DNA of 64,000 nt from a virus (IMGVR_UViG_3300027917_000021:1-64000); one strand, 5' to 3'; positions 4,232 to 18,729 are shown, numbered from the stretch's first letter. Notes: generated by a model not told the origin, from the sequence alone. A program made the numbers and translations.

Positions 4232-4232
4232 G

Positions 4233-4310: not shown

Positions 4311-4314
4311 GTTG

Positions 4315-4674: not shown

Positions 4675-4820
4675 ACTTCTCTTTATATTTTCCTCTGATT
4701 CTTTTTTTATTTGCCTGATAATATCTTTTATTTACTATAGATCTACATTCAGGACAAAGATTAGTGGTGCTTTTTTCTGTATCAAACATTCTAAAACAAC
4801 CACCACACTGATTTAAGTAT

Positions 4821-5027
4821 TCATTTCTCCTCCCTCGCTTTCATCATTGCATCGGCAATTTGATAACAATTAGCCGATATAAATTGATCAATCGACAAGT
4901 TATGTTGTTCGGCTGCTTCCCCTGCTGCAAATCTATAAGTTTCGTTTGATAACATACCATTCAATGCCAGCCCGGCAAACCAATCACGTAGTGTTATACT
5001 ATATTGTGGAAATACCGCATCTTTCAT
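4821..5027 (-). CDS. Conserved phage hypothetical protein
   Basis: TLRDWFAGLAL...YQIADAMMKAR motif; GGAGG RBS. Confidence 0.75.
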   Translation of the reverse strand: MKDAVFPQYSITLRDWFAGLALNGMLSNETYRFAAGEAAEQHNLSIDQFISANCYQIADAMMKAREEK

Positions 5028-5039
5028 TTCCCCTCCCTT

Positions 5040-5393
5040 TTAGTCTATCCAAACATAACCTTGTTCTGGTACTTCGCCTTCATATTCTTCTGATTTTATT
5101 TGTTCTGCGTAAATAATTAATATATCTTTTCTTTTTTCAAAACGGGATGGTAACCTTAATTGTTTAATTGATTCGCCTTCACTAATATCATAATCCTCGC
5201 CGCAGCAAGTACAAGTAATTCTTTCGGGATTATGCCCAAACCGATTATAAAAAACAATTTTTGCTTTTTCTACCGGGGCTTCAATATAAATATATTGCCA
5301 TTTTTCTTTTAAATTGCCGCCGGAATGCATATCCATAAATTTCGTCCAAGTCATTCTCCCCTCCATTCTTTCTTTTTGATTTAACAATAACAA
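5040..5393 (-). CDS. Hypothetical phage protein (start probably at MTWTKF)
   Basis: YIEA, CxCCG motif. Confidence 0.7.
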   Translation of the reverse strand: MLLLNQKERMEGRMTWTKFMDMHSGGNLKEKWQYIYIEAPVEKAKIVFYNRFGHNPERITCTCCGEDYDISEGESIKQLRLPSRFEKRKDILIIYAEQIKSEEYEGEVPEQGYVWID

Positions 5394-5423
5394 TATATGG
5401 TTTTTACCATTTACTATTTTTGG

Positions 5424-5666
5424 TTAAATGCGTTCTACAAACCACTGTGTATCCCATGTGTTTGGTAGATTTCTTATTTGTCGTACAAATGCATTTGCTT
5501 CTTTAGTAGTTGCAAATATTTTTCTTTTACATTCTTTTCTTACTTTCTGCTCATTTCCGCCTGTATACCACACATTGCCTAAATCTGTAGTGTCTTCATT
5601 TAACATATAAAAAACACCATTAATTTTGTTGCGGCCAGTTATAATACATTTTCTGGCTATTCCCAT
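5424..5666 (-). CDS. Hypothetical protein
   Basis: ORF with AAGGAG RBS. Confidence 0.65.
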   Translation of the reverse strand: MGIARKCIITGRNKINGVFYMLNEDTTDLGNVWYTGGNEQKVRKECKRKIFATTKEANAFVRQIRNLPNTWDTQWFVERI

Positions 5667-5687
5667 AACAATTCTCCTTCTGTTAAT

Positions 5688-5764
5688 TGGTAGGCCCGGA
5701 AGGACTTGAACCTATCACTATCTCGATTAAAAGTCGAGTGCTTTACCAGCTAAGCTACGGACCC
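5688..5764 (-). tRNA. tRNA-Lys(TTT), CCA encoded
   Basis: Cloverleaf, loop CT TTT AA. Confidence 0.95.
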
Positions 5765-5766
5765 AA

Positions 5767-5955
5767 TTACGTTTTTCTAGGTGCTTGATCCCCAAAATCT
5801 ACATCTTCCATGAATATGAATCTTCCATCTTCAAATTCTAAGGAAGTTCCAAAAAGCGTTATGCAGCTTTTTCTTTTGTCATAATGTCCAGTTTCATAGT
5901 CAACGCCATGCTTATCAAAAAATTCTTTGAACTCTTCAAATTCAGTTTTATCCAT
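5767..5955 (-). CDS. Hypothetical protein
   Basis: ORF immediately downstream of rtcB. Confidence 0.65.
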   Translation of the reverse strand: MDKTEFEEFKEFFDKHGVDYETGHYDKRKSCITLFGTSLEFEDGRFIFMEDVDFGDQAPRKT

Positions 5956-5959
5956 GAAA

Positions 5960-7129
5960 TTATCCCTTTATGTTTATAATTGGTTTAATGTGATGAATGA
6001 CTTCTACCAAGTCTTTTTGTTGTTCCATCACTTCAAAAATATTTTTATATGCGGCCGGCGATTCATCTATGGTAGCTGTCTCTACACGTGCCTTGATGCC
6101 ATTCATAGACTTCTTGAAATCTTCCATCTTCAGACTTTCTTTCGCTGCTCGGCGGCCAAGTACTCGTCCAGCCCCGTGTGAAGAGGAGTATAGAGATTCT
6201 GGATTACCTTTACCTTTTACAATAAAGGATCCATCACGCATATTGCCAGGAATTACTCCCATCATGTCTTTTTCTGCATGGGTGGCACCTTTACGATGTA
6301 TCCATAAGCCATCTTTTAATTCAGCATGATTATGGTTACGATTAATTAATCCATCCCAGTCTCCATGTCCTTTTGAATGGCGTTTAACTACTTTTTCCAC
6401 ACGACGGATCATTTCGGCACGGTTCAATAAAGCAAACTCTAAGGCATAATTAATGTCTGTGATGTAGTCTTGTCCGTTTTGAGAGTTTATGTCCAAAACA
6501 AAATATCCTTCTCGAGCTTTGCCATCTCCTGATGCTGCCTTCATATAATGAGTCGCTATATTGTGTCCAAAATTTCTGGATCCGGAATGGATGATTACCC
6601 ATATTTTTTCATCCTCATCATAGCCTATTTCAATAAAATGATTTCCTCCACCTAATGAACCAATTTGATATACTCCCTTCTCCGAGTAAATTTTTCCAAA
6701 ATGCTGAGTAATTGGCATCTGTTCCAGATGTTTGGTTGTATCAAAAGACACTCGTTTTTTATTCCAATCAAACCCAACTGGAATTACCTCGTATATTTCC
6801 TTGAAAATATTTTCTGTGGACGACTGTATTTGGTCTTTATGAAACGATGTAGGCAATGCACACATGCCACATCCAATATCATATCCTACAGCCGCCGGCC
6901 ATATAACATCTTTCATGGCAACAACTGCACCAATTGGAAGTGCATATCCAGTATGTGCGTCTGGCATTAGTGCGCCTTGTACTACTGTATCTTGCTTCAT
7001 TGCTTCATAAAATTGATCTAATGCTTGCCCTTCCACGTATTCGGCATAAATTTTATAAGGCTTATTTTTTGTAGATTTTACCTTTTCAGATATTTCTTTA
7101 TCTAAAAGATTGTCTTTCAATAGTGACAT
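5960..7129 (-). CDS. rtcB: RtcB-family RNA ligase
   Basis: MPDAHxGY, VGYDIGCGM, GGGNHFIE, HSGSR, HRKGAT, PGNM and HGAGR motifs. Confidence 0.97.
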   Translation of the reverse strand: MSLLKDNLLDKEISEKVKSTKNKPYKIYAEYVEGQALDQFYEAMKQDTVVQGALMPDAHTGYALPIGAVVAMKDVIWPAAVGYDIGCGMCALPTSFHKDQIQSSTENIFKEIYEVIPVGFDWNKKRVSFDTTKHLEQMPITQHFGKIYSEKGVYQIGSLGGGNHFIEIGYDEDEKIWVIIHSGSRNFGHNIATHYMKAASGDGKAREGYFVLDINSQNGQDYITDINYALEFALLNRAEMIRRVEKVVKRHSKGHGDWDGLINRNHNHAELKDGLWIHRKGATHAEKDMMGVIPGNMRDGSFIVKGKGNPESLYSSSHGAGRVLGRRAAKESLKMEDFKKSMNGIKARVETATIDESPAAYKNIFEVMEQQKDLVEVIHHIKPIINIKG

Positions 7130-7389
7130 TATATCTCCTTGAATTCTTTTATCATTTGTTCAAGTTTATCAGCATCATCTTGATTCATTGTCCAATTGCC
7201 AAAATACCCATAACGACTTTTATATCCAAATGTATATTTTATGGCCAACCACAGGCGCTGAAAAAAGTTTCTATGATTTCCAAGAAATACTGATACATAT
7301 ATTTCTTTTTCTTCTTTATCAAGTGTAAATCTTATTGTATGTTCATCATGTGCACAAATGCATTCAAAAAAATAAGAACCATCTAACAT
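7129..7389 (-). CDS. Hypothetical protein (start reassigned to MLDGSY; the track's extension lies in tRNAs)
   Basis: AGGAG RBS before ATG 7389; CxC motif. Confidence 0.7.
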   Translation of the reverse strand: MLDGSYFFECICAHDEHTIRFTLDKEEKEIYVSVFLGNHRNFFQRLWLAIKYTFGYKSRYGYFGNWTMNQDDADKLEQMIKEFKEI

Positions 7390-7409
7390 TTTTTTCTCCT
7401 GTTTTTTAG

Positions 7410-7482
7410 TGGAGAGTAAGAGGGTCGAACTCTTAACCTTCGCCGTGCAAGGGCGGTGCTCTCCCAATTGAGCTAACTCCCC
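7410..7482 (-). tRNA. tRNA-Ala(TGC)
   Basis: Cloverleaf, G3-U70. Confidence 0.95.
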
Positions 7483-7813
7483 ATGTGTGCGCCCTGAAAG
7501 ATTTGAACTTCCGATCTCCTGGATGTAAGCCAGGCGCCTTACCAACTTGACCAAGGGCGCTACCCCGCGAGAGACTCGAACTCCCGACACCCACGTCCGT
7601 AGCGTGGTGCTCTGATTCCAGCTGAGCTAGCGGGGCTTTAGATATTAAAATATATAAAAATATATCCCGGGTATATAGGCTAGTTCCTAATTGTATTCTA
7701 GGATATAATACTTGTTTGCCTATTAATTTTCTTCCATCATTGATTAGAAATACATCAACATCAATACTGCTAGTTGCTTCTATGTAAGGGTATTGTAATA
7801 TGTTTATTTCCAT
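7433..7813 (-). CDS. Small protein whose frame continues through tRNA-Arg, -Val and -Ala before a stop
   Basis: About 59 codons precede tRNA-Arg with no stop; overlaps the upstream ORF end. Confidence 0.55.
   Translation of the reverse strand: MEINILQYPYIEATSSIDVDVFLINDGRKLIGKQVLYPRIQLGTSLYTRDIFLYILISKAPLAQLESEHHATDVGVGSSSLSRGSALGQVGKAPGLHPGDRKFKSFRAHTWGVSSIGRAPPLHGEG
7488..7560 (-). tRNA. tRNA-Val(TAC)
   Basis: Cloverleaf, loop CT TAC AT. Confidence 0.93.
7561..7636 (-). tRNA. tRNA-Arg(ACG)
   Basis: Cloverleaf, loop CT ACG GA. Confidence 0.95.
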
Positions 7814-7998
7814 TTTGTATTTTCTATAACTATATAAATATTATGATTCCAAATAGTACTATCCGTACTTAATATAAGATTTCCTTTGTCATCGGGAATT
7901 ATGGCTGCTTTTGCTAAAATTGTGCAATCGCTGTATGATTTTGCGTTTCTTTCTCGTGTAGTAACCACAGAAGCTCTTTTAATTTTAAATCTTATCAT
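7804..7998 (-). CDS. Small hypothetical protein, ATG 2 nt after tRNA-Arg(TCT)
   Basis: ORF track and position. Confidence 0.65.
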   Translation of the reverse strand: MIRFKIKRASVVTTRERNAKSYSDCTILAKAAIIPDDKGNLILSTDSTIWNHNIYIVIENTKWK

Positions 7999-8000
7999 TG

Positions 8001-8074
8001 TACCCCTCCAGGAATTTGAATCCCGACCTTTGAAATTAGAAGTTTCATGCTCTATCCAGTTAAGCTAGAGGGGC
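8001..8074 (-). tRNA. tRNA-Arg(TCT)
   Basis: Cloverleaf, loop CT TCT AA. Confidence 0.95.
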
Positions 8075-8364
8075 TATTTCATATATTTATAATTTTTATT
8101 TTTAAAAAATTCTTTTGCCATGTCTATTACTTCTTCTAAAGACATATCTGTTCCAAGCTTTTCGTAAATTTCTGAATTGTCAACAAGTTTAGACCAATCT
8201 TCATCAAATTTCTTTAATTCTTTTTCATCCCATCCTTGAGATCCAAGATAAATTATTGTGACTTCTTCGGTTGCGCCTGATGCTGCCATATGAAAAATAA
8301 TATCGACCACCATAGATGCACTAATACGCAAAATAATATATTTGTCTGTGAACTTTACTTGCAT
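8074..8364 (-). CDS. Hypothetical protein (MQVKFTD...), related to 13703..13900
   Basis: AGGAG RBS; TAG stop shares its G with tRNA G1. Confidence 0.7.
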   Translation of the reverse strand: MQVKFTDKYIILRISASMVVDIIFHMAASGATEEVTIIYLGSQGWDEKELKKFDEDWSKLVDNSEIYEKLGTDMSLEEVIDMAKEFFKNKNYKYMK

Positions 8365-8380
8365 ATATTCTCCTTTTTTG

Positions 8381-8452
8381 CACGCCCACAAGGATTTGAA
8401 CCTCGAGTCTCGGATTTGGAGTCCGATGGTTTACCAATTAACCGATAGGCGC
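8381..8452 (-). tRNA. tRNA-Trp(CCA)
   Basis: Cloverleaf, loop CT CCA AA. Confidence 0.93.
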
Positions 8453-8641
8453 GTCTAAATCCCACTCTTCGTCAACTAAAAAAATATCTCCTGAAAACCA
8501 GAATGTGCCGCCTTGATTAACTCCTTTTTCGGCATATTGATTTTTGCCAATAAGAATTCCTTCTTGTTCTTCTTTAGGAGTTACGTCTGGTGTTCCTTTT
8601 AGAACTGGCCGGGATGCCACTATAATATTGATCGATTTCAT
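8438..8641 (-). CDS. Small hypothetical protein; stop inside tRNA-Trp
   Basis: GGAGG RBS; ends APIG* within the tRNA. Confidence 0.6.
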   Translation of the reverse strand: MKSINIIVASRPVLKGTPDVTPKEEQEGILIGKNQYAEKGVNQGGTFWFSGDIFLVDEEWDLDAPIG

Positions 8642-8819
8642 CTGTTAATATGACCTCCGTGTTGTATGTGGTTACAGTACAGTCGTGTGAAAATGTTACT
8701 ATAACTTCTCCTATTCTTTTTCCTTCCGGATAAGGTATCACGGTTTCTGCTTGTGTTGCACTATACCAATAAACTGGAGTTGTTATTACTTGTTTGTTAA
8801 TTAAATTTATATTTTTCAT
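8574..8819 (-). CDS. Small hypothetical protein, ATG 2 nt after tRNA-Glu
   Basis: ORF track and position. Confidence 0.6.
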   Translation of the reverse strand: MKNINLINKQVITTPVYWYSATQAETVIPYPEGKRIGEVIVTFSHDCTVTTYNTEVILTDEIDQYYSGIPASSKRNTRRNS

Positions 8820-8821
8820 AG

Positions 8822-8894
8822 TGGTCCCGGGGAGAATTGAACTCGCCGTTTTCTGGTTGAAAGCCAGATATCCTAACCATTAGATGACGGGACC
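8822..8894 (-). tRNA. tRNA-Glu(TTC)
   Basis: Cloverleaf, loop CT TTC AA. Confidence 0.95.
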
Positions 8895-9116
8895 TCTGGG
8901 TGCTTTTTTAATTTTTCTTTGTGGAAAAGGAAAAATAAAAAATACTGTAGCGTGTACTACATTTGAAGGCATTCCTTCGTAACCTTTAATATTTTTTGCT
9001 GTGATAATTTTACTTGCATTAAATTGGGTTGGGGAAGGATTTTGTGTTTTTAAATCAACCTGTATTGTTCCATTAAACATTCCCAAACCTGTACCTTTTA
9101 TTATATATGCTTTCAT
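8880..9116 (-). CDS. Small protein bounded by tRNA-His and tRNA-Glu
   Basis: ATG 2 nt after His; stop inside Glu. Confidence 0.6.
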   Translation of the reverse strand: MKAYIIKGTGLGMFNGTIQVDLKTQNPSPTQFNASKIITAKNIKGYEGMPSNVVHATVFFIFPFPQRKIKKAPRGPVI

Positions 9117-9118
9117 AG

Positions 9119-9194
9119 AGGGTCGTCAGGGAGTCGAACCCTACCTATACGAGCCACAATCGTACGTGCTTCTGCCCATATACACTACCGACCC
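9119..9194 (-). tRNA. tRNA-His(GTG)
   Basis: Loop TT GTG GC; atypical A-1/U73. Confidence 0.88.
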
Positions 9195-9421
9195 TTAAGT
9201 ACTCTTTTTAATTTTTTGCAGTCTATGCATATCTGCTCTTTCCTTCTAAATGTTTCAAATATTTCTCCACATGCTTTACATGCTTTGTCTCGCAAGCCTT
9301 CTGGCCTGTCATCAATCTCTGCAGTACATATATCTGTGCTGTCTGCTGTATCTGTTATTCTTATCCAGGTAGTTCCTGCTGTAGAAGTATCGCCTGTATA
9401 TTCTAATGTTGCAAATCCCAT
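9185..9421 (-). CDS. Small Zn-ribbon protein; stop inside tRNA-His
   Basis: CxxC...CxxC. Confidence 0.65.
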   Translation of the reverse strand: MGFATLEYTGDTSTAGTTWIRITDTADSTDICTAEIDDRPEGLRDKACKACGEIFETFRRKEQICIDCKKLKRVLKGR

Positions 9422-9447
9422 AAATTATTACCTTAATAAAACAAAAA

Positions 9448-9619
9448 TAGGGTGCTGTCCAGGTCGCTCATTTCTACGCCGTTGGTTAGTGCGGACTTAA
9501 AGCCAGTACGCGAGCCTCTAGCCGAACGTTATGACTAGAATATCTTCTCGATCACCAACATTATGTCTCTTTCTCTAGGAGTATTCTCACTACGAAATGC
9601 CCTCGATGCAGCACCTCTA
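9448..9619 (-). ncRNA. Unassigned structured RNA candidate (~170 nt)
   Basis: Closing stem GGTGCTG/CAGCACC; nested CATTTC/GAAATG and GTTGGT/ACCAAC. Confidence 0.5.
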
Positions 9620-9674
9620 ATTAAAGGGAGGATGTGCCGGCTGAGGACGCATTGCGTCCTCTATCCTCCCGTAG

Positions 9675-9748
9675 TAGCGCGGACGGGATTTGAACCCGTG
9701 ACCTGTTGGTTATGAGCCAACTGAGCTACCGGACTGCTCTACCGCGCG
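9675..9748 (-). tRNA. tRNA-Met(CAT), initiator-like body
   Basis: C1 mismatch, A11-U24 type D stem, loop CT CAT AA. Confidence 0.93.
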
Positions 9749-9754
9749 ATATAG

Positions 9755-9828
9755 TTGCGGGGGCGGGATTTGAACCCGCGACCTACAGGTTATGAGCCTG
9801 CCGAGCTACCAGACTGCTCCACCCCACA
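9755..9828 (-). tRNA. tRNA-Met(CAT)
   Basis: Cloverleaf, loop CT CAT AA. Confidence 0.93.
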
Positions 9829-9835
9829 TTAACCA

Positions 9836-10050
9836 TCATAATTTATTTTCTATAACCAGGATTCTGTATTTAACGTACGTTAAATGTCCGTGATTTATCT
9901 GTTGGCCCCTACCTTGTCATTATAGAGCTGCTCTCCCTCTAGACTATTTTGGGTCGCATCCTTGGTGGTATAATGGATATTCCTCCCACCGTGAGCAGCG
10001 ATGTCCTGAGTTTCCTCTCCGTAGAGCCACGAACCAAAAATAAATTATGA
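9836..10050 (-). ncRNA. rnpB: Minimal RNase P RNA
   Basis: CR-I GAGGAAACTCAGGAC, CR-IV AGATAAAT and CR-V ACAGAATCCTGGTTA with a complementary P4; P1 TCATAATTTATTTT/AAAATAAATTATGA. Confidence 0.88.
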
Positions 10051-11229
10051 AAATTTGTAAATAGTGCCTTCCGGAGACCTACTGATATAAACTTTTGATG
10101 TTTCCAGTACATGTGCTATCATCTCAACAAATTCTTTGAGGGTATCAAATTCATAATCAATATCACAATATGTAAGACAATATTTCTTTAAATTGTCAAC
10201 ACATGTTATTACCAATCTCCTATCAGCAACATTTTTTAATTTGTGAATATTAAAACTATATTCCAACAGTGATAAATCCAAAACTGTTTTTCTAAAATTT
10301 CCCTGCCATACATGCATTTTATTCTGCTCATATTTATTTTCCAGTATGAATTCATTGTTGTAGTGGTCCAGATTTGTCATTGGTCCGGTACCATGCCTAG
10401 TTTGATAAGCACGCGTAACTATCCAAACAGTAGGTTCTGCACTCTCTGGCAATGATATGTTTTTCATTCCTGTATTAGATCGTGTTACATGTGGAAAAAA
10501 TCCCAAATCTTGATCTAACAATAATCCTTGTGCACTTTCATAAATATAAGAATCAAAACCATCCGGAATATCTGTGCCTATATGTAGTCGCACGGCATAA
10601 TCATAGAAGTCTTCTCTTAATTCTTCACAAGCACCAAGAAATTTTTTCCAATCAGTTTTTTTGTTATAATATTTTTCCACCATACGAATTTTATACAACA
10701 AAATAGGTTCATAAAAAATATCTAGAAATTTAAAACTATAATGATCTTGTTCTCTTTTAATTGTAGTTCCGAATCCAACACCAACGCTTCCATGTTTAGT
10801 TATCAATTCCTGATTTTGATTAAATTCCTTATCAAGTGGAGTAGTAACCGGTGCATGAGAAGAAATAAATATTTCTGGGTCAATACCTTTCCCTATCAAA
10901 ATACCAAGTTCTTTTAGTAGTCCTTCTGGATCAACGGTGCAATGTTTACTCCAATAGGTGGGCACCCCGCGAAGAGTGCCCGAACCAAAATTGGAGAATA
11001 CATGTGATATTTTATTATGAATTACATGGTGCCCTGCTTGATGGCCACCATTAAAACGTATAACAAGAGGATTTTTCCTCTCACCGCTTAGCCAATCAAC
11101 TACTCTACCTTTTCCGTTATCCCCAAAACTTAAATCGAGGACAACATCATAAGATGACTTCTTCTTGAGGTTTTTCAACTTCCTCTTTAGGTTTTGTAGT
11201 ATCATCTGAAAATTTTCCTTGTTTGACAT
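10045..11229 (-). CDS. Adenylosuccinate synthetase-like protein (divergent PurA family)
   Basis: FGDNGKGRVVD, GGHQAGH, ESAQGLLLD, PHVTRS and TRHGTGP motifs; start uncertain. Confidence 0.85.
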   Translation of the reverse strand: MSNKENFQMILQNLKRKLKNLKKKSSYDVVLDLSFGDNGKGRVVDWLSGERKNPLVIRFNGGHQAGHHVIHNKISHVFSNFGSGTLRGVPTYWSKHCTVDPEGLLKELGILIGKGIDPEIFISSHAPVTTPLDKEFNQNQELITKHGSVGVGFGTTIKREQDHYSFKFLDIFYEPILLYKIRMVEKYYNKKTDWKKFLGACEELREDFYDYAVRLHIGTDIPDGFDSYIYESAQGLLLDQDLGFFPHVTRSNTGMKNISLPESAEPTVWIVTRAYQTRHGTGPMTNLDHYNNEFILENKYEQNKMHVWQGNFRKTVLDLSLLEYSFNIHKLKNVADRRLVITCVDNLKKYCLTYCDIDYEFDTLKEFVEMIAHVLETSKVYISRSPEGTIYKFS

Positions 11230-12046
11230 TTGAAAGAATTGTATCTCGAATTATTTTTGATACATCTTCATGTCTATCCGCAATGAACAATCGATCGCCC
11301 ATTAATTGTTTCCATCCATCAACTGTTTCTTTACGTGCTCCGGCTGCAGTTTCAGCAATATGAATATGAAAAACATCATACGTTTTCATTGCTTGTGCCA
11401 ATAGTTCATTTGCTGTTGTATCTGAATATTGCCCTGGACCCATGATACCTTCCAAGTGTCTTTTAGAAATAGACTCGAGTACCGGCTCGTCACCAATTGT
11501 GAATAGAAAGCCTTTTTGGCTACGCTTCTCAAAACAATCAATTGATGTATGTTTACTGGCAAAATACCATGCCAAATGATAGCTTTCGCCGACATTGCCT
11601 CCACCGCCGCCTTCTAAATAAACAGCAGTAAGCCATTTATCTAAAAGCTCATCACTTGATTCGAATTGTCCAACTTGTAATGGAGCACTATCGAAATTTG
11701 AATCTCCCACAGCCACAAACATAATTTGTGGGTCTGGAATTCCTGCCTGGATAATGCCTTCCATAATCTTTGGCAGGCCATCTTTAACCAGGAAATGTGG
11801 AACTGATCCCATGGAGCCGGTAACATCCAGACCTATAACAATAGCCAGGCTATTTGGATGTTCATCTGAATCCCGAGATTCTCTTACTGTTACACCATGA
11901 GGACTCATGGCATTATTTATAGAACGCTGTTTAAAAACGTTCTCTTTGTGGGATAAATACTCTTCAGTATCCTTATACCCTTCTGTTGTGGCCATGAACG
12001 CAATGCGTTCCGTGCGGGATTCGCTGGAATATCTTCCGCCACCCAT
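11147..12046 (-). CDS. vWA domain protein
   Basis: DVTGSMG MIDAS, GGGGN.GESY, TIGDE. Confidence 0.88.
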   Translation of the reverse strand: MGGGRYSSESRTERIAFMATTEGYKDTEEYLSHKENVFKQRSINNAMSPHGVTVRESRDSDEHPNSLAIVIGLDVTGSMGSVPHFLVKDGLPKIMEGIIQAGIPDPQIMFVAVGDSNFDSAPLQVGQFESSDELLDKWLTAVYLEGGGGGNVGESYHLAWYFASKHTSIDCFEKRSQKGFLFTIGDEPVLESISKRHLEGIMGPGQYSDTTANELLAQAMKTYDVFHIHIAETAAGARKETVDGWKQLMGDRLFIADRHEDVSKIIRDTILSNVKQGKFSDDTTKPKEEVEKPQEEVIL

Positions 12047-12435
12047 TAAGTCACCTCGCCTTCCAATTCACCAACTGGTATGTTTCCCGGTTTTTTTGAG
12101 GAATCAACGAATTGATATTCGTATTCCTGTTTAGCTAACATAAGGCGAATTTTTTCGTTCCTGATTTTCATAGCCAGCTCCAGATTTTTTTCAACGTATG
12201 CTGCTGCGTCAAAATCTGAAGGAACTTTAAGGCTCAATGCATTATCAGGAGATAAATCAAGCATATTCTCTTTATCTCTTAGGAGTTGCTTAATTTTCAC
12301 CTCAATGTCTTCCACCTTACGTTTATATAAAAGCTCGGCGGACTCGACCAGTGCTTCTGCACGGTCTTTTCGAATACCTTGATTGGTTCTCGTTAGAGAC
12401 TCAACAAAGGCTCCTTTAGCTTGTTGATTAGCCAT
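12046..12435 (-). CDS. Coiled-coil hypothetical protein
   Basis: Heptad-rich; TAATG coupling to the vWA gene. Confidence 0.75.
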   Translation of the reverse strand: MANQQAKGAFVESLTRTNQGIRKDRAEALVESAELLYKRKVEDIEVKIKQLLRDKENMLDLSPDNALSLKVPSDFDAAAYVEKNLELAMKIRNEKIRLMLAKQEYEYQFVDSSKKPGNIPVGELEGEVT

Positions 12436-12451
12436 TTTCTTTCCTCTCTGT

Positions 12452-12643
12452 TTAATGGTTTAATTTGCTATTTACCATAGCTTTATAATATAGATGTTTT
12501 TGATTTTCCAAAAAATTGTCTAAAGCATGAAGCTTAGTTTCTAATGCACAAATCCACGCATATGTGTTAATGGGATCCTTAGATGCATTTAAATTCTTTT
12601 CTATTATTTTTAATTCTTTTAAATATTCACTTAAATTGACCAT
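12452..12643 (-). CDS. Hypothetical protein
   Basis: ORF 7 nt after a GGAATAAGAA motif. Confidence 0.55.
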   Translation of the reverse strand: MVNLSEYLKELKIIEKNLNASKDPINTYAWICALETKLHALDNFLENQKHLYYKAMVNSKLNH

Positions 12644-12667
12644 ATTTACTTTCTTATTCCATATTTG

Positions 12668-12753
12668 CGGTAGGAGAAGGATTCGAACCTTCGTGCCCCG
12701 TAGGACGACGGTTTAGCAAACCGTTGCAATTAGCCTGACTCTGCCATCCTACC
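12668..12753 (-). tRNA. tRNA-Ser(GCT)
   Basis: Long variable arm, loop TT GCT AA, G73. Confidence 0.93.
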
Positions 12754-12957
12754 TATTCCTGGTAAAAAATGGTCTATAATTGTAGTACCATCTATTTTTA
12801 CTTCCCGAACCCGAACCATTCCAGTACCTGTTCTGCCTAAAATCACACTTGGCAGTTCAATATTAGTAGTAGCACTGTGCCCGTGTATTCCGTTTTCTTC
12901 ATGGCTCATTCTTATCCATGTCAATGTTTGACCATCAATTAAATTTATTTTTCTCAT
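12730..12957 (-). CDS. Small protein; stop inside tRNA-Ser
   Basis: GGAGG RBS; ends GRMAESG* within the tRNA. Confidence 0.65.
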   Translation of the reverse strand: MRKINLIDGQTLTWIRMSHEENGIHGHSATTNIELPSVILGRTGTGMVRVREVKIDGTTIIDHFLPGIGRMAESG

Positions 12958-12970
12958 AGTCCTCCTTTTG

Positions 12971-13044
12971 TGGGGACAGTTGGAGTTGAACCAACGACCA
13001 GAAAATTTTCAGTTTTCCACTCTACCACACTGAGTTACATCCCC
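12971..13044 (-). tRNA. tRNA-Phe(GAA)
   Basis: Cloverleaf, loop CT GAA AA. Confidence 0.93.
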
Positions 13045-13632
13045 ATTACGTCTACAGAAAGTTGATTGTTGGCTATTACAATTTGGACAAAGTAATCTTA
13101 AATTTTTTATTCTGTAATCATCATTTTTACCATTTATATGGTCCAGTATTAGAACAAGTGGCTTTTCATTCCAAATAGGTTTTAATTTACAGATATTACA
13201 TTCATTATTTAAAAGATTTTTTTCTACCAACCTTTTCTTTAACCGTGTATTATTTTTATATGACGAATTATCAACCAATATTTCTTCTAAAGTTTTTCTT
13301 ACTACTTCCCCAGTTCTTCCGTGTGCTTTGCCCAAAAAATGATCTGTAGATATTTTTAATTTTTTTATATGGCGATTCAACGTGTCATAATTACCAGGTC
13401 TCGAACTTAACCCCAATTTTCGTAAAACCTCTGCTTTAGAAATACTAGTTTTAATTGCTTCTTTTAGATCAGTGTCGCTCCAGGTTCTTTGACCAGATCG
13501 TCTATATTGAGTTTTCAATCCATATTTATCTAACCAATACTTTGCAGATGTATACGATATTTGTTCTTTTGCTGCTATGTTTCTTATAGATAATCCAGCT
13601 TCTATATACTTAATTAAATTTTGTTTTTTCAT
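13009..13632 (-). CDS. HNH homing endonuclease
   Basis: CxxC...LDHING...NLRLLCPNCNSQ; N-terminal HTH-like region. Confidence 0.92.
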   Translation of the reverse strand: MKKQNLIKYIEAGLSIRNIAAKEQISYTSAKYWLDKYGLKTQYRRSGQRTWSDTDLKEAIKTSISKAEVLRKLGLSSRPGNYDTLNRHIKKLKISTDHFLGKAHGRTGEVVRKTLEEILVDNSSYKNNTRLKKRLVEKNLLNNECNICKLKPIWNEKPLVLILDHINGKNDDYRIKNLRLLCPNCNSQQSTFCRRNGDVTQCGRVEN

Positions 13633-13637
13633 ACTAT

Positions 13638-13666
13638 AATATACTAAAATTATTACAGTATGTCAA
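13638..13666 (-). promoter_or_regulatory. sigma70-type promoter, leaderless HNH transcript
   Basis: TTGACA-17-TATATT, ATG 5 nt downstream. Confidence 0.75.
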
Positions 13667-13668
13667 TA

Positions 13669-13698
13669 GTTCGCTCTACCAACTGAGCTACAGTCCCC
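13669..13698 (-). pseudogene. Orphan tRNA 5' half
   Basis: GGGGACTGTAGCTCAGTTGGTAGAGCG ends abruptly at the HNH promoter. Confidence 0.8.
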
Positions 13699-13702
13699 TT
13701 AA

Positions 13703-13900
13703 TTATTCTTTTGGTCTATTATGTTTATGATATTCTTTTAAAGTCCATCCTAATGATCTAAGCCTTTTATCTGCTAATTCTAACATTTCTTTTTCGGACA
13801 TGTATGATGCTAATCCTTCATTGATGACTTTCATCATGAGTTCATCAACTTCTTTTAATCCTGCTCTTATAAAGTAGCAGTCTGTGAATTTAACTTCCAT
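13703..13900 (-). CDS. Small protein (MEVKFTD...), ATG 2 nt after tRNA-Leu
   Basis: Related to 8074..8364 (VKFTD, LxSxGW). Confidence 0.7.
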   Translation of the reverse strand: MEVKFTDCYFIRAGLKEVDELMMKVINEGLASYMSEKEMLELADKRLRSLGWTLKEYHKHNRPKE

Positions 13901-13902
13901 AG

Positions 13903-13987
13903 TAGGAGCGGAGGGACTTGAACCCCCACGGTATTTCTACCACTAGATCCTAAGTCTAGCGCGCCTGCCAAATTTCGCCACGCTCCC
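13903..13987 (-). tRNA. tRNA-Leu(TAG)
   Basis: Long variable arm, loop CT TAG GA. Confidence 0.95.
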
Positions 13988-13998
13988 ATTTAGGACAG

Positions 13999-14202
13999 CT
14001 ATGCTGTCCTAATATGTTTATATTGTGTTTTACGTTTTTGTTTCCAGGATCTTTTAGGATACCTGCTTATTCCCACTCCTGAATTGCAGCCTTTGCCTAG
14101 TGGACATATAGGACATAATCCACCAAGCAGCACGTAATACCTTGCTGCGCGATATATTCTATTGTTTGTTGTTGTATGTAGAATTTGATAAGCTTTGTGC
14201 AT
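13999..14202 (-). CDS. Small basic Cys-containing protein
   Basis: CPICP...GCN, RSWK...RKTQY. Confidence 0.6.
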   Translation of the reverse strand: MHKAYQILHTTTNNRIYRAARYYVLLGGLCPICPLGKGCNSGVGISRYPKRSWKQKRKTQYKHIRTA

Positions 14203-14632
14203 AGTTTACAGGCCATATATAAGGTAAATTATTAGGTTCTGTCCAATCATATTGAGAATAGAAAGAAAAATCTTTTCTTAATAGATTGGATCTATGACTC
14301 GCATGAAAATTTTCATCCCCTAACCAATGTGGAAGATGTATGACATCTGCTATGATAAAACGTGGCATATTATTTTTATATCCTTTAAGTATCCATGTAT
14401 CTACTACGACATTATAATATTTCGTAAGAGCGTCCTCATATCCTTCCCACATTAAAACAGCTGGATGGTTTATCCACCCCTTAGGTACATTTTTGTCTCC
14501 TTTTTGAATAGCTTTTCTTCTTTCTAGGACATTCAAAATTTGATATGCCTCTACTCGCTGTTTTCCAAGCCTTCTGTAATCTAATATTTTTGCACTTACA
14601 TTAAAATCCGGATAAGGTAAAAAAGTTTGCAT
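14159..14632 (-). CDS. Pyrimidine-dimer DNA glycosylase superfamily protein (MSMEG_6728-like)
   Basis: MQTFLPYPDF, LDxRRLGKQRVE, HPAVLMWxGY, HxSHRSNLLRKD. Confidence 0.88.
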   Translation of the reverse strand: MQTFLPYPDFNVSAKILDYRRLGKQRVEAYQILNVLERRKAIQKGDKNVPKGWINHPAVLMWEGYEDALTKYYNVVVDTWILKGYKNNMPRFIIADVIHLPHWLGDENFHASHRSNLLRKDFSFYSQYDWTEPNNLPYIWPVNYAQSLSNSTYNNKQ

Positions 14633-14635
14633 AAT

Positions 14636-14857
14636 TTATCTGGGTTTATAAGCACGTATAAACTCAAAACGTCCACTTCTCATAGGAGGCCCTCCTGGAT
14701 ATGCGTGCTTTATTTGTTTATTGAAAAATAAACTCATAGAAAAATCTTGGGTTTCCCATTTTTTCTTCAATTTTTCTAAAGCTTCGGTGACTTTAACTTT
14801 ATCAGTTATTTCATCGAATACTGTTTCTTGTGTAACGTGAACTATACGTTTTTTCAT
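14636..14857 (-). CDS. Small protein, ATG 2 nt after tRNA-Leu(CAA)
   Basis: Start reassigned to ATG 14857. Confidence 0.6.
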   Translation of the reverse strand: MKKRIVHVTQETVFDEITDKVKVTEALEKLKKKWETQDFSMSLFFNKQIKHAYPGGPPMRSGRFEFIRAYKPR

Positions 14858-14859
14858 TG

Positions 14860-14945
14860 TAGGCAAGGTAGGGTTTGAACCTACACCCCATCACGGTGGG
14901 ACTAGAGTTTGAACCTAGCGCGTCTTCCAATTCCGCCACTTGCCC
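14860..14945 (-). tRNA. tRNA-Leu(CAA)
   Basis: Long variable arm, loop TT CAA AC. Confidence 0.93.
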
Positions 14946-15163
14946 TAAGCATCGAAAAAGATTTTTAATATTATAGATGCTATTTCATTTGATTTTTTAA
15001 GTGAAAGATCACTATTATCTTTTATAGCCATGGCTAAATTAGCTCTCCAGCCTACATGATATCCTTTATCTGTTTTTAGTGCTTTTCCTAATGTGTCCAT
15101 TGCGTCTTCGATATGGTTCTTTTTTACAAGAACTTCTTTTCTTACAAATTTTACTTTTTTCAT
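14945..15163 (-). CDS. Small protein bounded by two tRNA-Leu genes
   Basis: ATG 2 nt after Leu(TAA); TAG shares its G with Leu(CAA) G1; GWxANLAMA motif. Confidence 0.7.
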   Translation of the reverse strand: MKKVKFVRKEVLVKKNHIEDAMDTLGKALKTDKGYHVGWRANLAMAIKDNSDLSLKKSNEIASIILKIFFDA

Positions 15164-15165
15164 AG

Positions 15166-15249
15166 TAGGGATGGAAGGGGTCGAACCTTCACGATATTTC
15201 TATCACGGAATTTTAGGTCCCGCGCGCCTGCCGATTACGCCACATCCCC
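15166..15249 (-). tRNA. tRNA-Leu(TAA)
   Basis: Long variable arm, loop CC TAA AA (C33). Confidence 0.9.
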
Positions 15250-15256
15250 AAAAAAA

Positions 15257-15421
15257 AGAGGTAGTTATCAGCTATAAGCATTAGTCTTATGTGGCCGGAA
15301 ACATTTGAGTTCTGCTCGGGTTAGCCTATTATGTTCGAGCCTTTAGCTACCAGAATGTTCACATAACCATCATTTCCCCTGCCAGGTAGGAATACCAAAC
15401 ACTATTATTGTAACTACCTCT
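15257..15421 (-). ncRNA. Unassigned structured RNA candidate (~165 nt)
   Basis: Perfect 11-bp closing stem AGAGGTAGTTA/TAACTACCTCT; nested stems. Confidence 0.55.
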
Positions 15422-15431
15422 CTCCCACTAC

Positions 15432-15956
15432 TTACCGGCCAAAATTGACCAGAGCAGCAGGAATATCAATATCTACTTTTGTCGCATTGGCAAGTGCAAC
15501 AGTCTGTCGTATATCCGCTGCATGTTTATTGGCAGCATTACGAACTTTTGTCGCATCTTCTTTGGCAATACTTCTTTTTGCATGTACCTCATCTTTATTA
15601 CGTACACGATCATATGTATCACCCCACCCACGGCGTGATGTTTCTTTGTCAACAGTAAGTATTTTCCATGTAGACGCAAAACGGCTAGCCATGCCAATTG
15701 CCTTAATCGCATATGCTAAAGTTTTTTCTTCTCCAGCAATTTCTACTTTGACATAAAGATTGTATCTTTGCTGTGCTTCTTCAAGTTTAGCTACAGCATC
15801 TTCTGCTTTTTTATAATCCTCTGCAACTACTATAGGATCCACTTTATCATTATCATCAAAATAGTAAAGTGAATTTTTCAAATCAGTTGCAGCTCCATCT
15901 AGCACTGTACGCCAATGACGTAGTGCTTCTCTTAACTGATATCCAGTTACTTTCAT
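15432..15956 (-). CDS. Long helical protein, possibly DIP1984/septicolysin-like
   Basis: LxEAL N-terminus, QxxN..V.V...TLAxAI, IRxxVALANATxV C-terminus. Confidence 0.6.
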   Translation of the reverse strand: MKVTGYQLREALRHWRTVLDGAATDLKNSLYYFDDNDKVDPIVVAEDYKKAEDAVAKLEEAQQRYNLYVKVEIAGEEKTLAYAIKAIGMASRFASTWKILTVDKETSRRGWGDTYDRVRNKDEVHAKRSIAKEDATKVRNAANKHAADIRQTVALANATKVDIDIPAALVNFGR

Positions 15957-16150
15957 TGTTTTCCTTCCGTTAAAATTATTTCTTTTGGTAATACTTGGCT
16001 ACGAACAAATACCCAGCTTAAATGATTTTCTCTGGCTGTTAATATCCAACCTGAGCCTGAGCCTTCATCCATAGATCTAGGAATTACCTGACTACTATCA
16101 ACACTTTTTATAATTAGTTGATTTCTAGAATGTACTTTTATTTGCTTCAT
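15953..16150 (-). CDS. Small protein, ATG 2 nt after tRNA-Ser(TGA)
   Basis: ATGA coupling to the downstream gene. Confidence 0.65.
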   Translation of the reverse strand: MKQIKVHSRNQLIIKSVDSSQVIPRSMDEGSGSGWILTARENHLSWVFVRSQVLPKEIILTEGKQ

Positions 16151-16152
16151 AG

Positions 16153-16244
16153 AGGTGGGTTAGAGATTCGAACTCTAAAACCGCTTTTCAACGGCCACGC
16201 TGTTTTCAAGACAGGTCCCCGCGCCAAATGAGGTCAGACCCACC
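16153..16244 (-). tRNA. tRNA-Ser(TGA), atypical D arm and U73
   Basis: Loop CT TGA AA, long variable arm. Confidence 0.85.
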
Positions 16245-16327
16245 TAGTTGGCGAGAGCTTTATAAACATTAACTCATAATCACTATCTACTCTCGCTTAG
16301 AGTAGTGAATAGACCTAATGCCATAAG

Positions 16328-16403
16328 CGGGGCATAACGGATTTGAACCGATGGTCTCCTGCGTGACAGGCAGGCGCTTTAAGCCAAGCTAAGCTAATAC
16401 CCC
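16328..16403 (-). tRNA. tRNA-Asp(GTC)
   Basis: Cloverleaf, loop CT GTC AC. Confidence 0.95.
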
Positions 16404-16409
16404 GTTTTT

Positions 16410-16832
16410 TTATTTTTGATACTCATAGATTTCAAATGCCGAATTCTTTATAAATGATTTATATGGTAAATGTACAACTCTCTGTGAATATGTTTTATAA
16501 TGTATGTCTTCCTTGATATCTCGACGTACTGTAAAATACGCTTTTCCATTTTTTGTTAATAATTTATTTATGTGCTTGATTATCTTTTCTTGTTCTTCTT
16601 CTGTTACAACACATAATATGTAATTACAAATTATGACATCATATTTACCTGTTGGTGTAATGTTGTGCCAGTGTGGATCATATCGTTCCAAATTATTTAT
16701 AAATTGGTAATCTATTGATTTTCCACATCCATAATCAAGCATTCTTTTCCCAGTCAATACTCCATAAACTAATAGCATTGCTGTTGGACTAGATATTTTT
16801 TTTCTCACTATTGCAGTTCGCGCGTTTGACAA
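16410..16832 (-). CDS. Class I SAM-dependent methyltransferase
   Basis: RTAIxR..SxP, LDYGCGK, YDP, YDVIICNYIL, AYFTVRRD. Confidence 0.85.
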   Translation of the reverse strand: MSNARTAIVRKKISSPTAMLLVYGVLTGKRMLDYGCGKSIDYQFINNLERYDPHWHNITPTGKYDVIICNYILCVVTEEEQEKIIKHINKLLTKNGKAYFTVRRDIKEDIHYKTYSQRVVHLPYKSFIKNSAFEIYEYQK

Positions 16833-16992
16833 GATCTTTCATGGTTAAATCATATATTCCTATATGATTAATGTATTCATATTTTGTGCCTTGTTCTGTC
16901 GTATAAAATAAAACCTGTTTAAACAGCCCAAGGACTTCTAAATCAGTACTCCACGTAGTGCTTAGTACTGATGGATATGTTCTCACTATCAT
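16789..16992 (-). CDS. Small protein, ATG 2 nt after tRNA(CAT)
   Basis: Start reassigned to MIVRTY. Confidence 0.6.
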   Translation of the reverse strand: MIVRTYPSVLSTTWSTDLEVLGLFKQVLFYTTEQGTKYEYINHIGIYDLTMKDLVKRANCNSEKKNI

Positions 16993-16994
16993 AG

Positions 16995-17067
16995 TTGGCC
17001 CAACAGGGCTTGAACCTGTGACCGGTGCATTATGAGTGCACTGCTCTACCAACTGAGCTATGGGCCA
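16995..17067 (-). tRNA. tRNA(CAT), probably Ile2 (lysidine type) or elongator Met
   Basis: GGCCCA acceptor, loop CT CAT AA. Confidence 0.9.
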
Positions 17068-17080
17068 TAATAAAACATAG

Positions 17081-17153
17081 TGGTACCGCCTGGACTTGAA
17101 CCAGGGACCATTCGGATATCAGCCGAATGCTCCACCAACTGAGCTACGGTACC
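17081..17153 (-). tRNA. tRNA-Ile(GAT)
   Basis: Cloverleaf, loop CT GAT AT. Confidence 0.93.
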
Positions 17154-17162
17154 GCCGGACAA

Positions 17163-17543
17163 TTACTTGTCCAGTTTGCACAGATATTTCTCAAAATCCG
17201 TTGGCGTGGCTTCCAGGTCAATTTTTTTAACTTCTGGTGCTTCGAACAGATCCTCATAGTTTCTGTTTTCATTCCGGTCGTTACCAAATAGACGATCCAT
17301 AATATCATCTGCACGACGAGGAAATATTTCATTTATATATCCTTCACGTGACATGATTTTAACCGCATTATCAAAACGGGCATTGACCATCTTGAAGCCT
17401 TGCTTTTTGTTTAGAGGATGAATCTCACCTTCTCCATAAACGGAAATAGTACGAGCAAACTTCACCCCATTTTCATTTGAGAAAACACCTACTGTTACGA
17501 TAGGGTGGTTACCCTCATCATACAGGTAATATACACGTCTCAT
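17163..17543 (-). CDS. Hypothetical protein
   Basis: ORF with RBS, ATGA coupling. Confidence 0.7.
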   Translation of the reverse strand: MRRVYYLYDEGNHPIVTVGVFSNENGVKFARTISVYGEGEIHPLNKKQGFKMVNARFDNAVKIMSREGYINEIFPRRADDIMDRLFGNDRNENRNYEDLFEAPEVKKIDLEATPTDFEKYLCKLDK

Positions 17544-17788
17544 GACGGGTCTCCTTCTTTAATGGTTTCTTCCAGTTCTTCCATTATTTCTTGTTGTAAT
17601 CTTTCAAAGGCATAATCTGGAACCTTATGCCCTGCTTTTATATGCTCCACTAAGTGATTTAATGCATCAAGCCTAGTTTTAAATATATCTTTACCATATT
17701 TATCAAAACCACACCAACAACACTGGAAGCCTTCACCGGTGGCCAAAAAATAAATGTCGCTGTCTTCACCAAATCTACAATATGACAT
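17540..17788 (-). CDS. Conserved phage hypothetical protein
   Basis: MSYCRF..DSD.Y, CCxC, HLxEHxxAGHxVP; GGAGG RBS. Confidence 0.75.
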   Translation of the reverse strand: MSYCRFGEDSDIYFLATGEGFQCCWCGFDKYGKDIFKTRLDALNHLVEHIKAGHKVPDYAFERLQQEIMEELEETIKEGDPS

Positions 17789-17949
17789 TTTATTAACAAC
17801 CTCCTATAAAATGATTTTCTTTTATATCAGTAAAATCGGTGAATAGTTTATTTTGATATAAGTAAATAGTACAAAATAATACATCATTTCTTGTCATATC
17901 ATGATATATTTCTGTTACAGCGTTCGCTGTCATAATTTTTATTTTCACG

Positions 17950-18022
17950 CTGGGGCGGAAGGGCTCGAACCTCCGACATTCGGGTCCAAGGCCCGACGTT
18001 CCACCAACTGAACTACACCCCA
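17950..18022 (-). tRNA. tRNA-Gln(TTG)
   Basis: U1-A72, loop CC TTG GA (C33). Confidence 0.9.
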
Positions 18023-18023
18023 G

Positions 18024-18473
18024 TTAGTCTATCATTAAAGGTACTACGTTCTCATACCAATATGATTGATTACCTATTTTATTTTTTCTTATTTCAGGAT
18101 GTTCATGAAATATTTTAAGAATTAATTTGGATCTTTCTTTGCTTTCTTCCACATCAAAGCCCTGATAATCATCTCCTACCATCATCCATTTATGATGATA
18201 TATGGGGCCAGTATCATTACGATACCAGAGTTGTCTTAAATCTGTCCACACCATTTGAATAGCCGGCTCTGCATGCCCATCAAAATTAAAGCAGCTAATA
18301 ACAGATGTATGCTGAAGAGTCATATCATATTTTAGTATATCCATGCCAGGCATGTCTTTACCATCCATTCGTAATGCTCTGGTTATATAAAGCCAGTCTG
18401 GTATGTCCCAATGATCTATATAATCTTTATGAATGTAAAGATTATTTCTTACAATTTTTCCTGGTTTTCTCAT
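18024..18473 (-). CDS. Hypothetical protein resembling the non-catalytic domain of phosphorothioation-associated methyltransferases
   Basis: GKxVxxxLYIH, FDxxxEP, PIYHHKW motifs. Confidence 0.6.
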   Translation of the reverse strand: MRKPGKIVRNNLYIHKDYIDHWDIPDWLYITRALRMDGKDMPGMDILKYDMTLQHTSVISCFNFDGHAEPAIQMVWTDLRQLWYRNDTGPIYHHKWMMVGDDYQGFDVEESKERSKLILKIFHEHPEIRKNKIGNQSYWYENVVPLMID

Positions 18474-18656
18474 AATTAATGACGGTAGTCGCGCGGATTA
18501 CGTGCCAAAATTCACCAATATTGGCGCTTTCGTAGCACAACGCGCTTTCCCGCCCATTTTTTGCAAATACATTTCGGATTACGCACTCACCCGGATGAAC
18601 CCGGTAATCACCAACGTCAGAAGTCAGTTAACGGAGTACAACGTTTTCTAAGCAAG

Positions 18657-18729
18657 CTCACGAGGAAGGAATCGAACCTACAACCGTTGCCTTAACAGGG
18701 CACAGCTCTGCCTATTGAGCTACTCGTGA
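18657..18729 (-). tRNA. tRNA-Asn(GTT)
   Basis: Cloverleaf, loop CT GTT AA, G73. Confidence 0.93.

Follow-up and report, generated by a model that had tools for sequence, protein, structure and literature searches.

How does a nuclease gene come to sit between the severed 5′ end of one transfer RNA (tRNA) gene and a complete copy of another? The question is raised by positions 12,971 to 13,698 of a viral DNA stretch of 64,000 nucleotides (nt) (IMGVR_UViG_3300027917_000021:1-64000), the window of this study, which is the first 64 kilobases (kb) of a 155,895-base-pair (bp) virus record. Twenty-seven tRNA genes lie in the window, all on the minus strand within 2031-18729 (ARAGORN), and inside this array an open reading frame (ORF) for an HNH endonuclease follows an orphan tRNA 5′ end and runs into a complete tRNA-Phe. 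An earlier sequence-only reading took this for an intron-less endonuclease cassette that had lodged in a tRNA gene and rebuilt it from its own C-terminal codons. Alignment with close relatives that lack the HNH gene and carry an intact tRNA-Phe at the site shows that the lineage of the window did gain such a cassette: a promoter, the HNH gene and a foreign tRNA-Phe overwrote the resident gene and left a 26-nt stub of it. The parts of the locus are as follows.

13672-13697, minus strand: stub, positions 1-26 of the resident tRNA-Phe (26/26 identical to the uninterrupted tRNA-Phe of the HNH-less contigs L169, L170 and L171).
13660-13671, minus strand: left end of the cassette, AACTA then TTGACAT, absent from the HNH-less allele.
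13638-13666, minus strand: sigma-70-type promoter, TTGACA (13666-13661), 17-nt spacer and TATATT (13643-13638), 11 of 12 consensus positions.
13009-13632, minus strand: ORF of 207 amino acids for an endonuclease with two helix-turn-helix (HTH) domains and an HNH domain (HTH-HTH-HNH), from the match to PHROG 10822, conserved residues and the ratio of nonsynonymous to synonymous substitution rates (dN/dS).
13009-13044, minus strand: 36-nt overlap of the ORF end and the cassette-borne tRNA (tRNA*), codons 197-207 plus stop being tRNA* positions 1-35 (ORF, ARAGORN and Rfam coordinates).
12971-13044, minus strand: tRNA*, a complete tRNA-Phe(GAA) (Rfam tRNA, 64.8 bits; ARAGORN).
12975-13671, minus strand: segment of ~697 nt present in the window and absent from the HNH-less allele (alignment with L169, L170 and L171).

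The HNH-less contigs, from three metagenome assemblies, were found through the 75-residue ORF that lies downstream of the tRNA in the window and has one database relative, 93% identical and encoded on all three. Their flanks are 97% identical to the window (198/204 across the upstream 65-residue ORF region, 257/265 downstream), and between the 65-residue and 75-residue ORFs each has one tRNA-Phe(GAA), which is uninterrupted, and lacks the HNH gene. Over its positions 1-26 this resident gene corresponds to window 13697-13672 without a mismatch, an agreement far above chance; the match breaks off behind G26 and is taken up again at CCCACAAAAGGAGG, where the tRNA has its last CCCA, and window 13671-12975 replaces ~44 nt of the resident gene (positions 27 to ~69). 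The orphan is thus the first 26 nt of the relatives' single tRNA-Phe and not an unrelated decayed tRNA, the outcome that would have undone the sequence-only reading. It is a real tRNA 5′ end, as that reading held, although shorter than the half described there, and the break falls after G26 and not half-way along the tRNA. Recombination between the stub and tRNA* would leave the 3′ part found in the window, which is absent in the relatives; the difference between the alleles therefore reflects insertion and not loss.

What came in was a complete foreign tRNA-Phe and not merely a 5′ half, because the 3′ part of tRNA* is unlike the resident allele. The two genes are identical at 51/74 positions overall and at 28/48 (58%) from position 27 to the end. 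The T stem reads GTTGG/CCAAC in tRNA* and GAAGG/CCTTC in the resident gene, with compensatory changes, and the acceptor 3′ strands are TGTCCCC and TGGTCCC, respectively; further differences are G10A, C25T, a 2-nt insertion in the D loop and the entire anticodon stem. The sequence-only reading had the cassette supply a replacement 5′ half alone, joined to the original 3′ half. Overlap of the ORF end with the 5′ 35 nt of an intact tRNA fits such a join, as does the fact that the cassettes of the window and of contig L001 are alike only to tRNA position ~16, yet the HNH-less allele contradicts it in the T stem, the acceptor 3′ strand and the anticodon stem, and we regard this version of events as very improbable.

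The incoming gene has the look of a working tRNA, as had been expected. Both ARAGORN and Rfam call tRNA-Phe(GAA) at 13044-12970/12971, with an Rfam score of 64.8 bits against a threshold of 29 over model positions 1-71. It has a D stem of ACTC/GAGT, a D loop 2 nt larger, an anticodon stem of GAAAA/TTTTC and discriminator A, with CCA not encoded, and the allele comparison shows that it occupies the tRNA-Phe slot of the phage. Residues 197-207 of the HNH protein (GDVTQCGRVEN) are read from this tRNA gene, and the TGA stop (13011-13009) is U33-G34-A35 of its anticodon loop, both as first described. Overlap of this kind is not special to the HNH gene, since ORFs in the array often stop within the tRNA that follows: the 5′ ends of at least 9 of the 27 tRNAs are covered by the last bases of an ORF lying upstream (by 1, 1, 10, 10, 15, 15, 24, 36 and 50 nt). 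Within the array, the features unique to the HNH gene are the stub and a promoter of its own. Nine array ORFs also begin right after a tRNA 3′ end (eight at a 1-nt gap, one at 3 nt), and this tight tRNA/ORF punctuation suggests that the messenger RNAs (mRNAs) arise through tRNA processing. The guanine-plus-cytosine content of the cassette (27-34%) is low, yet inside the range of the array, and is not informative.

A stub followed by an endonuclease ORF could also be exon 1 of a split tRNA with the ORF in a self-splicing intron, and group I introns with endonuclease ORFs are known in bacterial and phage tRNA genes (PMC3984707). Here, however, Rfam finds no group I intron or other ribozyme family at E <= 10 within 12000-15000, in agreement with the lack of group I core motifs noted earlier; the stub ends at G26 and not in the anticodon loop; and there is no matching 3′ exon, the downstream tRNA being complete alone and foreign in its 3′ part to the gene of the stub. 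An intron is scarcely credible at this site.

The stub comprises the acceptor 5′ strand GGGACTG, U8, A9, a canonical D arm and G26. Minus strand 13698-13669 (TAGCTCAGTTGGTAGAGC) is recognizable as a tRNA acceptor strand and canonical D arm, and the stub itself (13672-13697) is called as a tRNA by neither ARAGORN nor Rfam. At the left end of the cassette, ACTATTGACAT is common to the window and L001, and TATTGACATAC is common to the window and L002, a contig whose HNH protein is 68% identical. AACTA and TTGACAT are spaced from the stub like an anticodon stem strand (27-31) and loop (32-38), and this end (13660-13671) may have been left by an earlier tRNA target and now serve as a -35 box. Three earlier ideas about the stub were discarded. 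Placing the left junction in the anticodon loop, with TTGA of the -35 box positioned like U32-U33-G34-A35, fails against the HNH-less allele, which puts the junction after G26. The apparent better pairing of a GGGGAC(T)G orphan with the downstream acceptor 3′ strand is void, since GGGACTG is the actual acceptor strand of the stub and the 3′ strand came from elsewhere. Assigning the stub an isotype by similarity proved noisy, the canonical D arm being common to many isotypes; Phe is enriched for L001, L002 and L118, and not clearly for the window. Elsewhere, near the start of the record, the canonical D-arm motif (TAGCTCAACAGGTAGAGC) occurs at window 40-57 (minus strand) and is not an ARAGORN tRNA.

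A promoter followed by a leaderless-type ORF had been described downstream of the orphan, and both were recovered. TTGACA/TATATT is the best sigma-70 match within 12400-14300, and the ATG at 13632 lies about 5-6 nt past the -10 box and has no Shine-Dalgarno sequence. The 39 nt from stub to ATG carry 3 differences between the window and L001, whereas synonymous sites of the ORF are ~29% different; this slower change argues for a functional promoter. As the -10 box ends 5 nt before the ATG, the HNH mRNA is probably leaderless.

The encoded protein matches PHROG 10822, 'HNH endonuclease', with E = 1.9e-41 and has more than 1,300 relatives in databases. Residues C145, C148, H165, N167, N177, C182, P183, N184 and C185 are invariant in 50 relatives, and D164 is nearly so; alignments of 15 and of 50 relatives alike preserve both CxxC pairs, the D-H motif and the Asn residues. 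These are the features of an HNH nuclease: a catalytic His in the D-H motif, finger Asn residues and two CxxC pairs for zinc. No GIY-YIG domain was found by Pfam and PHROG searches, which gave HNH and HTH families only, and a profile search of PDB sequences returned the N-terminal HTH as its sole match. In the AlphaFold model (mean predicted local distance difference test score (pLDDT) 89), strands are predicted at 162-165 and 178-181 and a helix at 183-187, and the tail, residues 200-207, falls below 50 and is disordered. Foldseek comparisons of the model are weak: the C-terminal domain may resemble McrA, Cas5-HNH, Cap5 and Gme HNH (E >= 0.015), and the N-terminal part paired-domain or Tc3-like bipartite HTH DNA binders. 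The family-conserved part ends at about residue 196 (...CPNCNSQQSTFCRRN), with the pattern CPNCNSQQxTFC and a few variable residues, and since the closest relative (90% identical) ends at TFCRK, the tail in the window comes from translation running on into the tRNA gene. Between the window and L001, dN/dS of the ORF is 0.13 at dS 0.37, which together with the invariant catalytic and zinc residues indicates an ORF maintained by purifying selection.

The same element recurs in other surroundings. L001, a 739-bp contig that encodes the 90% identical protein, has a different stub and an unrelated upstream flank; its similarity to the window, ~92% at the nucleotide level, runs from ACTATTGACA through the ORF to tRNA-Phe position ~16. 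L002 has a stub, a TTGACA promoter, the ORF and an overlapped tRNA-Phe amid other neighbouring tRNAs. Presence of the cassette in these different contexts is evidence of mobility. The ORF of L001 stops with TAA 1 nt before its tRNA, and that of L002 stops at the tRNA's own T8-A9-G10. The layout of stub, promoter, ORF and tRNA is also found in L083, L101 and L118 (~50% identity). In L007 (2890-3540) a layout of this type is built on tRNA-Trp, with a stub that retains the CCA anticodon loop and an ORF that overlaps an intact tRNA-Trp by 51 nt.

To describe the wider family, 160 loci with protein relatives were taken from IMG/VR and JGI metagenomes, and 131 non-redundant HNH cores were used for a tree. 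Nearly all of these 131 relatives lie within phage tRNA arrays, on the tRNA strand, and many of the ORFs stop between 51 nt inside and 9 nt before the next tRNA, several of them at its T8-A9-G10. The closest relatives adjoin tRNA-Phe in two polarities, either as stub, HNH and tRNA or as the mirror form, tRNA, HNH and an orphan 3′ piece. L105 has a short 3′-end tRNA repeat of the mirror form. In L085 (4001-4890), a tRNA-Phe and a 275-residue HNH ORF are followed by a perfect 45-nt direct repeat, which spans the tRNA-Phe from the anticodon loop (A36) to 6 nt beyond CCA; to judge by this repeat, it looks like a very recent insertion of opposite polarity. L093 (900-1040) and L096 (1-60), at 46-48% identity, have the gene before tRNA-His and after one or two stubs whose Phe/Ile-type D arm is unlike that of tRNA-His; in these cases the stub apparently either moved along with the cassette or derives from some other victim gene. 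A family member in Rhodococcus phage Dorin (L172; PQ114736.1, 72254-72843), a cultured SEA-PHAGES phage, is annotated between tRNA-Glu and tRNA-Gly with zero spacing. Other cultured phages with relatives include Rhodococcus phage Francesca, Enterococcus phage vB_OCPT_Bop (hegA), Staphylococcus phage phiSA12 and T5-like phages.

We consider it likely that the locus is a free-standing ~0.7-kb HNH homing-endonuclease cassette, composed of a promoter, the nuclease ORF and an overlapping complete tRNA-Phe. The HNH enzyme would cut cassette-free canonical tRNA-Phe genes during co-infection, and the double-strand break would be repaired from the cassette-bearing genome, with the stub as the left homology arm and the tRNA 3′ end or the downstream flank as the right; nuclease gene and tRNA would hence be copied together. 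The carried tRNA, divergent in the D arm and the anticodon stem, is presumed to be functional and uncut, so the phage would keep a tRNA-Phe, and the element would act as a natural 'cleave and rescue' unit. Cleavage of the tRNA-Phe target and immunity of the carried tRNA are both predictions made from the DNA. The -35 box is equally distant from the stub in the window, L001 and L002, a constancy that may arise because crossovers inside the stub leave everything rightward donor-derived. Expression could be damped by RNase P, whose cut the sequence-only reading already took to cost the ORF its stop and for which the phage endonuclease SegB offers a precedent: with processing at the 5′ end of the tRNA the ORF would lose its final 11 codons together with the stop, and the cut mRNA would encode exactly the conserved 196 residues, without a stop codon.

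The pattern might instead have arisen with the nuclease uninvolved, the block of HNH gene and tRNA having come by ordinary recombination, illegitimate or guided by short homology, at tRNA genes, the sole conserved islands between divergent phage arrays; the nuclease would then perhaps be inactive on tRNA genes or have another role. Both junctions do fall where tRNAs are conserved, the left one in the D arm and the right one at the terminal CCCA, as homology-guided exchange would give. Against such passive exchange, stubs are ~20-fold enriched right upstream of the HNH family: 6 of 15 orphan 5′ tRNA pieces, defined by a conservative hidden Markov model criterion, lie within 100 nt upstream of an HNH start, a zone that makes up 1.9% of the searched DNA (binomial p = 2e-7). 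The ORF is under purifying selection, and SegB is a nuclease-dependent precedent (PMC2330249, PMC13096335). The adjacent tRNA type also follows the HNH phylogeny across unrelated contexts, with Phe requiring 11 changes on the tree against a shuffled mean of 22 (0/300 shuffles as low) and Gln, Leu, Asp and Glu likewise clustered, a statistic that phage kinship could inflate, though flanking genes differ between loci.

That caveat is one of several points that weigh against the homing account. No immunity signature was detected: when the D arms of tRNA-Phe genes beside an HNH gene were compared with those of the remaining phage tRNA-Phe genes of the same loci, the former were not significantly less canonical (Mann-Whitney p = 0.19-0.34); stubs are more canonical than the working copy in 4/5 loci, too few to count. 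The tRNAs of the window, L001 and L002 are mutually no closer than to the resident allele (52/75 versus 51/74 and 57/75), and as the tRNAs of related cassettes are not especially alike, the tRNA partner appears to have been reshuffled over time; long-term co-travel with the nuclease is not seen. Both the missing signature and the reshuffling speak for passive exchange. The Pfam HNH match (PF01844) scores 19.5 bits, under the 21.4 cut-off, with an N-terminal HTH seen, and the best Foldseek match to an HNH structure reaches E 0.015. A second empty site was sought around L002 and the search returned only the query itself, which leaves one empty site in all. Given the stub enrichment, the agreement of tRNA type with phylogeny and the selection on the ORF, we nevertheless judge recombination without the nuclease unlikely.

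Another possibility is that the nuclease has been domesticated and benefits the phage, through SegB-like tRNA amplification under defence pressure or by excluding competitors, with homing secondary. This view overlaps the homing cassette that we favour. Escape from Septu is achieved by SegB-driven amplification of a tRNA gene (PMC13096335), many loci have the HNH gene between two tRNAs of one amino acid (Gln/Gln, Arg/Arg, Leu/Leu, Lys/Lys, Tyr/Tyr and Phe/Phe), and purifying selection on the ORF fits a useful gene as well. Yet phages that are 97% identical differ in whether they carry the gene, as is typical of selfish inserts, and the gene is present in a single copy in the genome with no amplified unit; domestication as the main explanation is improbable, more so than passive recombination.

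Further searches around the locus gave little material for comparison. There is no close DNA relative of the window in the GenBank phage collection, the 65-residue and 75-residue neighbour proteins have no relatives in IMG/VR, the IMG/VR relatives of a 299-residue neighbour are too rearranged for comparison, and an exact-pattern scan for the stub-promoter junction gave no match. The three HNH-less contigs also differ from the window outside the cassette. The 75-residue ORF (12957-12730) carries a 6-nt tandem duplication relative to them (GTTCGG unit, two extra codons, at ~12812-12817), and because of this duplication the product on L169, L170 and L171 has 73 residues and not 75. The tRNA-Leu(TAG) at window 13902-13987 (minus strand) and its counterpart at L169 2091-2175 are identical at only 74/87 positions despite the 97%-identical context. 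The differences lie in the D arm and in both anticodon stem strands, with pairing retained and the anticodon the same. From this pattern it looks like a swapped or converted stretch within a tRNA gene, and it could be an old conversion tract or the result of selection against anticodon-arm nucleases.

Homing endonucleases usually spare their target gene, either by residing in a self-splicing intron or intein or by taking a position beside the gene. The empty-site allele is evidence of a third solution for an RNA gene, which is to overwrite the gene, bring a substitute and leave a short stub. If the nuclease cuts canonical tRNA-Phe, this would explain why HNH genes, broken tRNA pieces, duplicated isoacceptors and odd tRNAs occur in phage arrays; it would also provide tRNA-type-specific DNA nucleases with defined targets and a natural model of 'cleave and rescue' inheritance. 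More tentatively, and as a proposal that we rate somewhat below an even prospect, the whole HNH family could be a large set of 'cleave and rescue' drives, each lineage specialised on one tRNA type. Each would cut the canonical gene in rival phages (conceivably also in the host), carry an uncuttable rewired copy welded to its ORF, use the stub as left homology arm and home into any phage with that tRNA irrespective of the genes around it, and together they would be a major force behind turnover, duplication and odd sequences in phage tRNA arrays. For annotation, such stubs are not to be taken for decayed independent tRNAs, and tRNAs that adjoin such nucleases may be recent imports.

The biology is that of free-standing homing endonucleases in a variant form and not a new category: the cassette shows presence/absence polymorphism in 97%-identical flanks, and the same element is found in unrelated contexts. 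Integrase-type elements also insert into tRNA genes, restore the tRNA from the attachment site and leave a partial duplicate. In both cases a tRNA gene receives the insertion, and a functional tRNA with a partial duplicate is the outcome; however, integrase-type elements rely on a recombinase of the tyrosine or serine type and produce an identical copy of a 3′ segment, whereas the 0.7-kb cassette encodes an HNH nuclease only, leaves a 5′ end behind and brings a tRNA of another allele. A link between HNH genes and tRNA repertoire diversity has reportedly been drawn for cluster M mycobacteriophages by Pope et al. in 2014, as cited elsewhere. Earlier papers mention HNH genes within tRNA arrays of phages and mycobacteria, without the stub anatomy (PMC6409571, PMC5966550, PMC8421152), and no description was found by a full-text literature search for stub, partial or truncated tRNAs together with HNH genes in phages.

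The closest known system is SegB of phages T4 and T6, a free-standing endonuclease of the T-even tRNA cluster that cuts inside tRNA genes and promotes its own transmission together with that of neighbouring tRNA genes (PMC2330249, PMC13096335). It is absent from the close relatives T2L, RB1 and RB3 and promotes rearrangement and amplification of the tRNA region (PMC2330249, PMC13096335). Loss of the stop codon by tRNA processing, with damped expression, has been proposed for segB and for the endonucleases of the T5 tRNA cluster (PMC2330249). Both SegB and the present protein are encoded by a free-standing nuclease gene within a phage tRNA array, in an ORF that adjoins a tRNA and is absent from close relatives. 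In contrast, SegB is a GIY-YIG enzyme with no sequence relationship to the HNH protein, lacks a promoter of its own (PMC2330249) and recognises a T-arm motif of many tRNAs, whereas each sub-lineage of the HNH family is paired with a single tRNA type. The layout of stub plus replacement, in which the resident gene is overwritten, a 26-nt stub remains and ORF and tRNA overlap by 36 nt, is not described for SegB. The T5 tRNA cluster, as cited in PMC2330249, contains ORFs for HNH-type site-specific endonucleases and resembles the present locus to that extent. T5-like phages give distant tblastn matches to the protein studied here, such as the 'homing endonuclease | tRNA-Met' of Salmonella phage vB_Sen_I1 (28% identity), and the kinship is only distant.

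In logic, the closest match is the mobile endonuclease ORFs (mORFs) of fungal mitochondria, which carry a foreign gene end and are found in Allomyces atp6 and in Glomus atp6, atp9, cox2 and nad3 (PMC3630166). There, too, an intron-less endonuclease ORF inside a gene brings a foreign part of that gene, and the native remnant matches close relatives while the inserted copy is divergent (PMC3630166); in the window, the remnant equals the relatives' allele at 26/26 positions and the incoming tRNA matches it at 51/74. mORFs, however, target protein-coding genes, encode LAGLIDADG enzymes and replace the 3′ end of the gene in frame (PMC3630166), whereas the present cassette entered a tRNA gene, left the 5′ end of that gene as remnant and supplied a complete gene copy in place of a fused end. 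With nuclease class, target type and polarity all different, the likeness is one of logic only.

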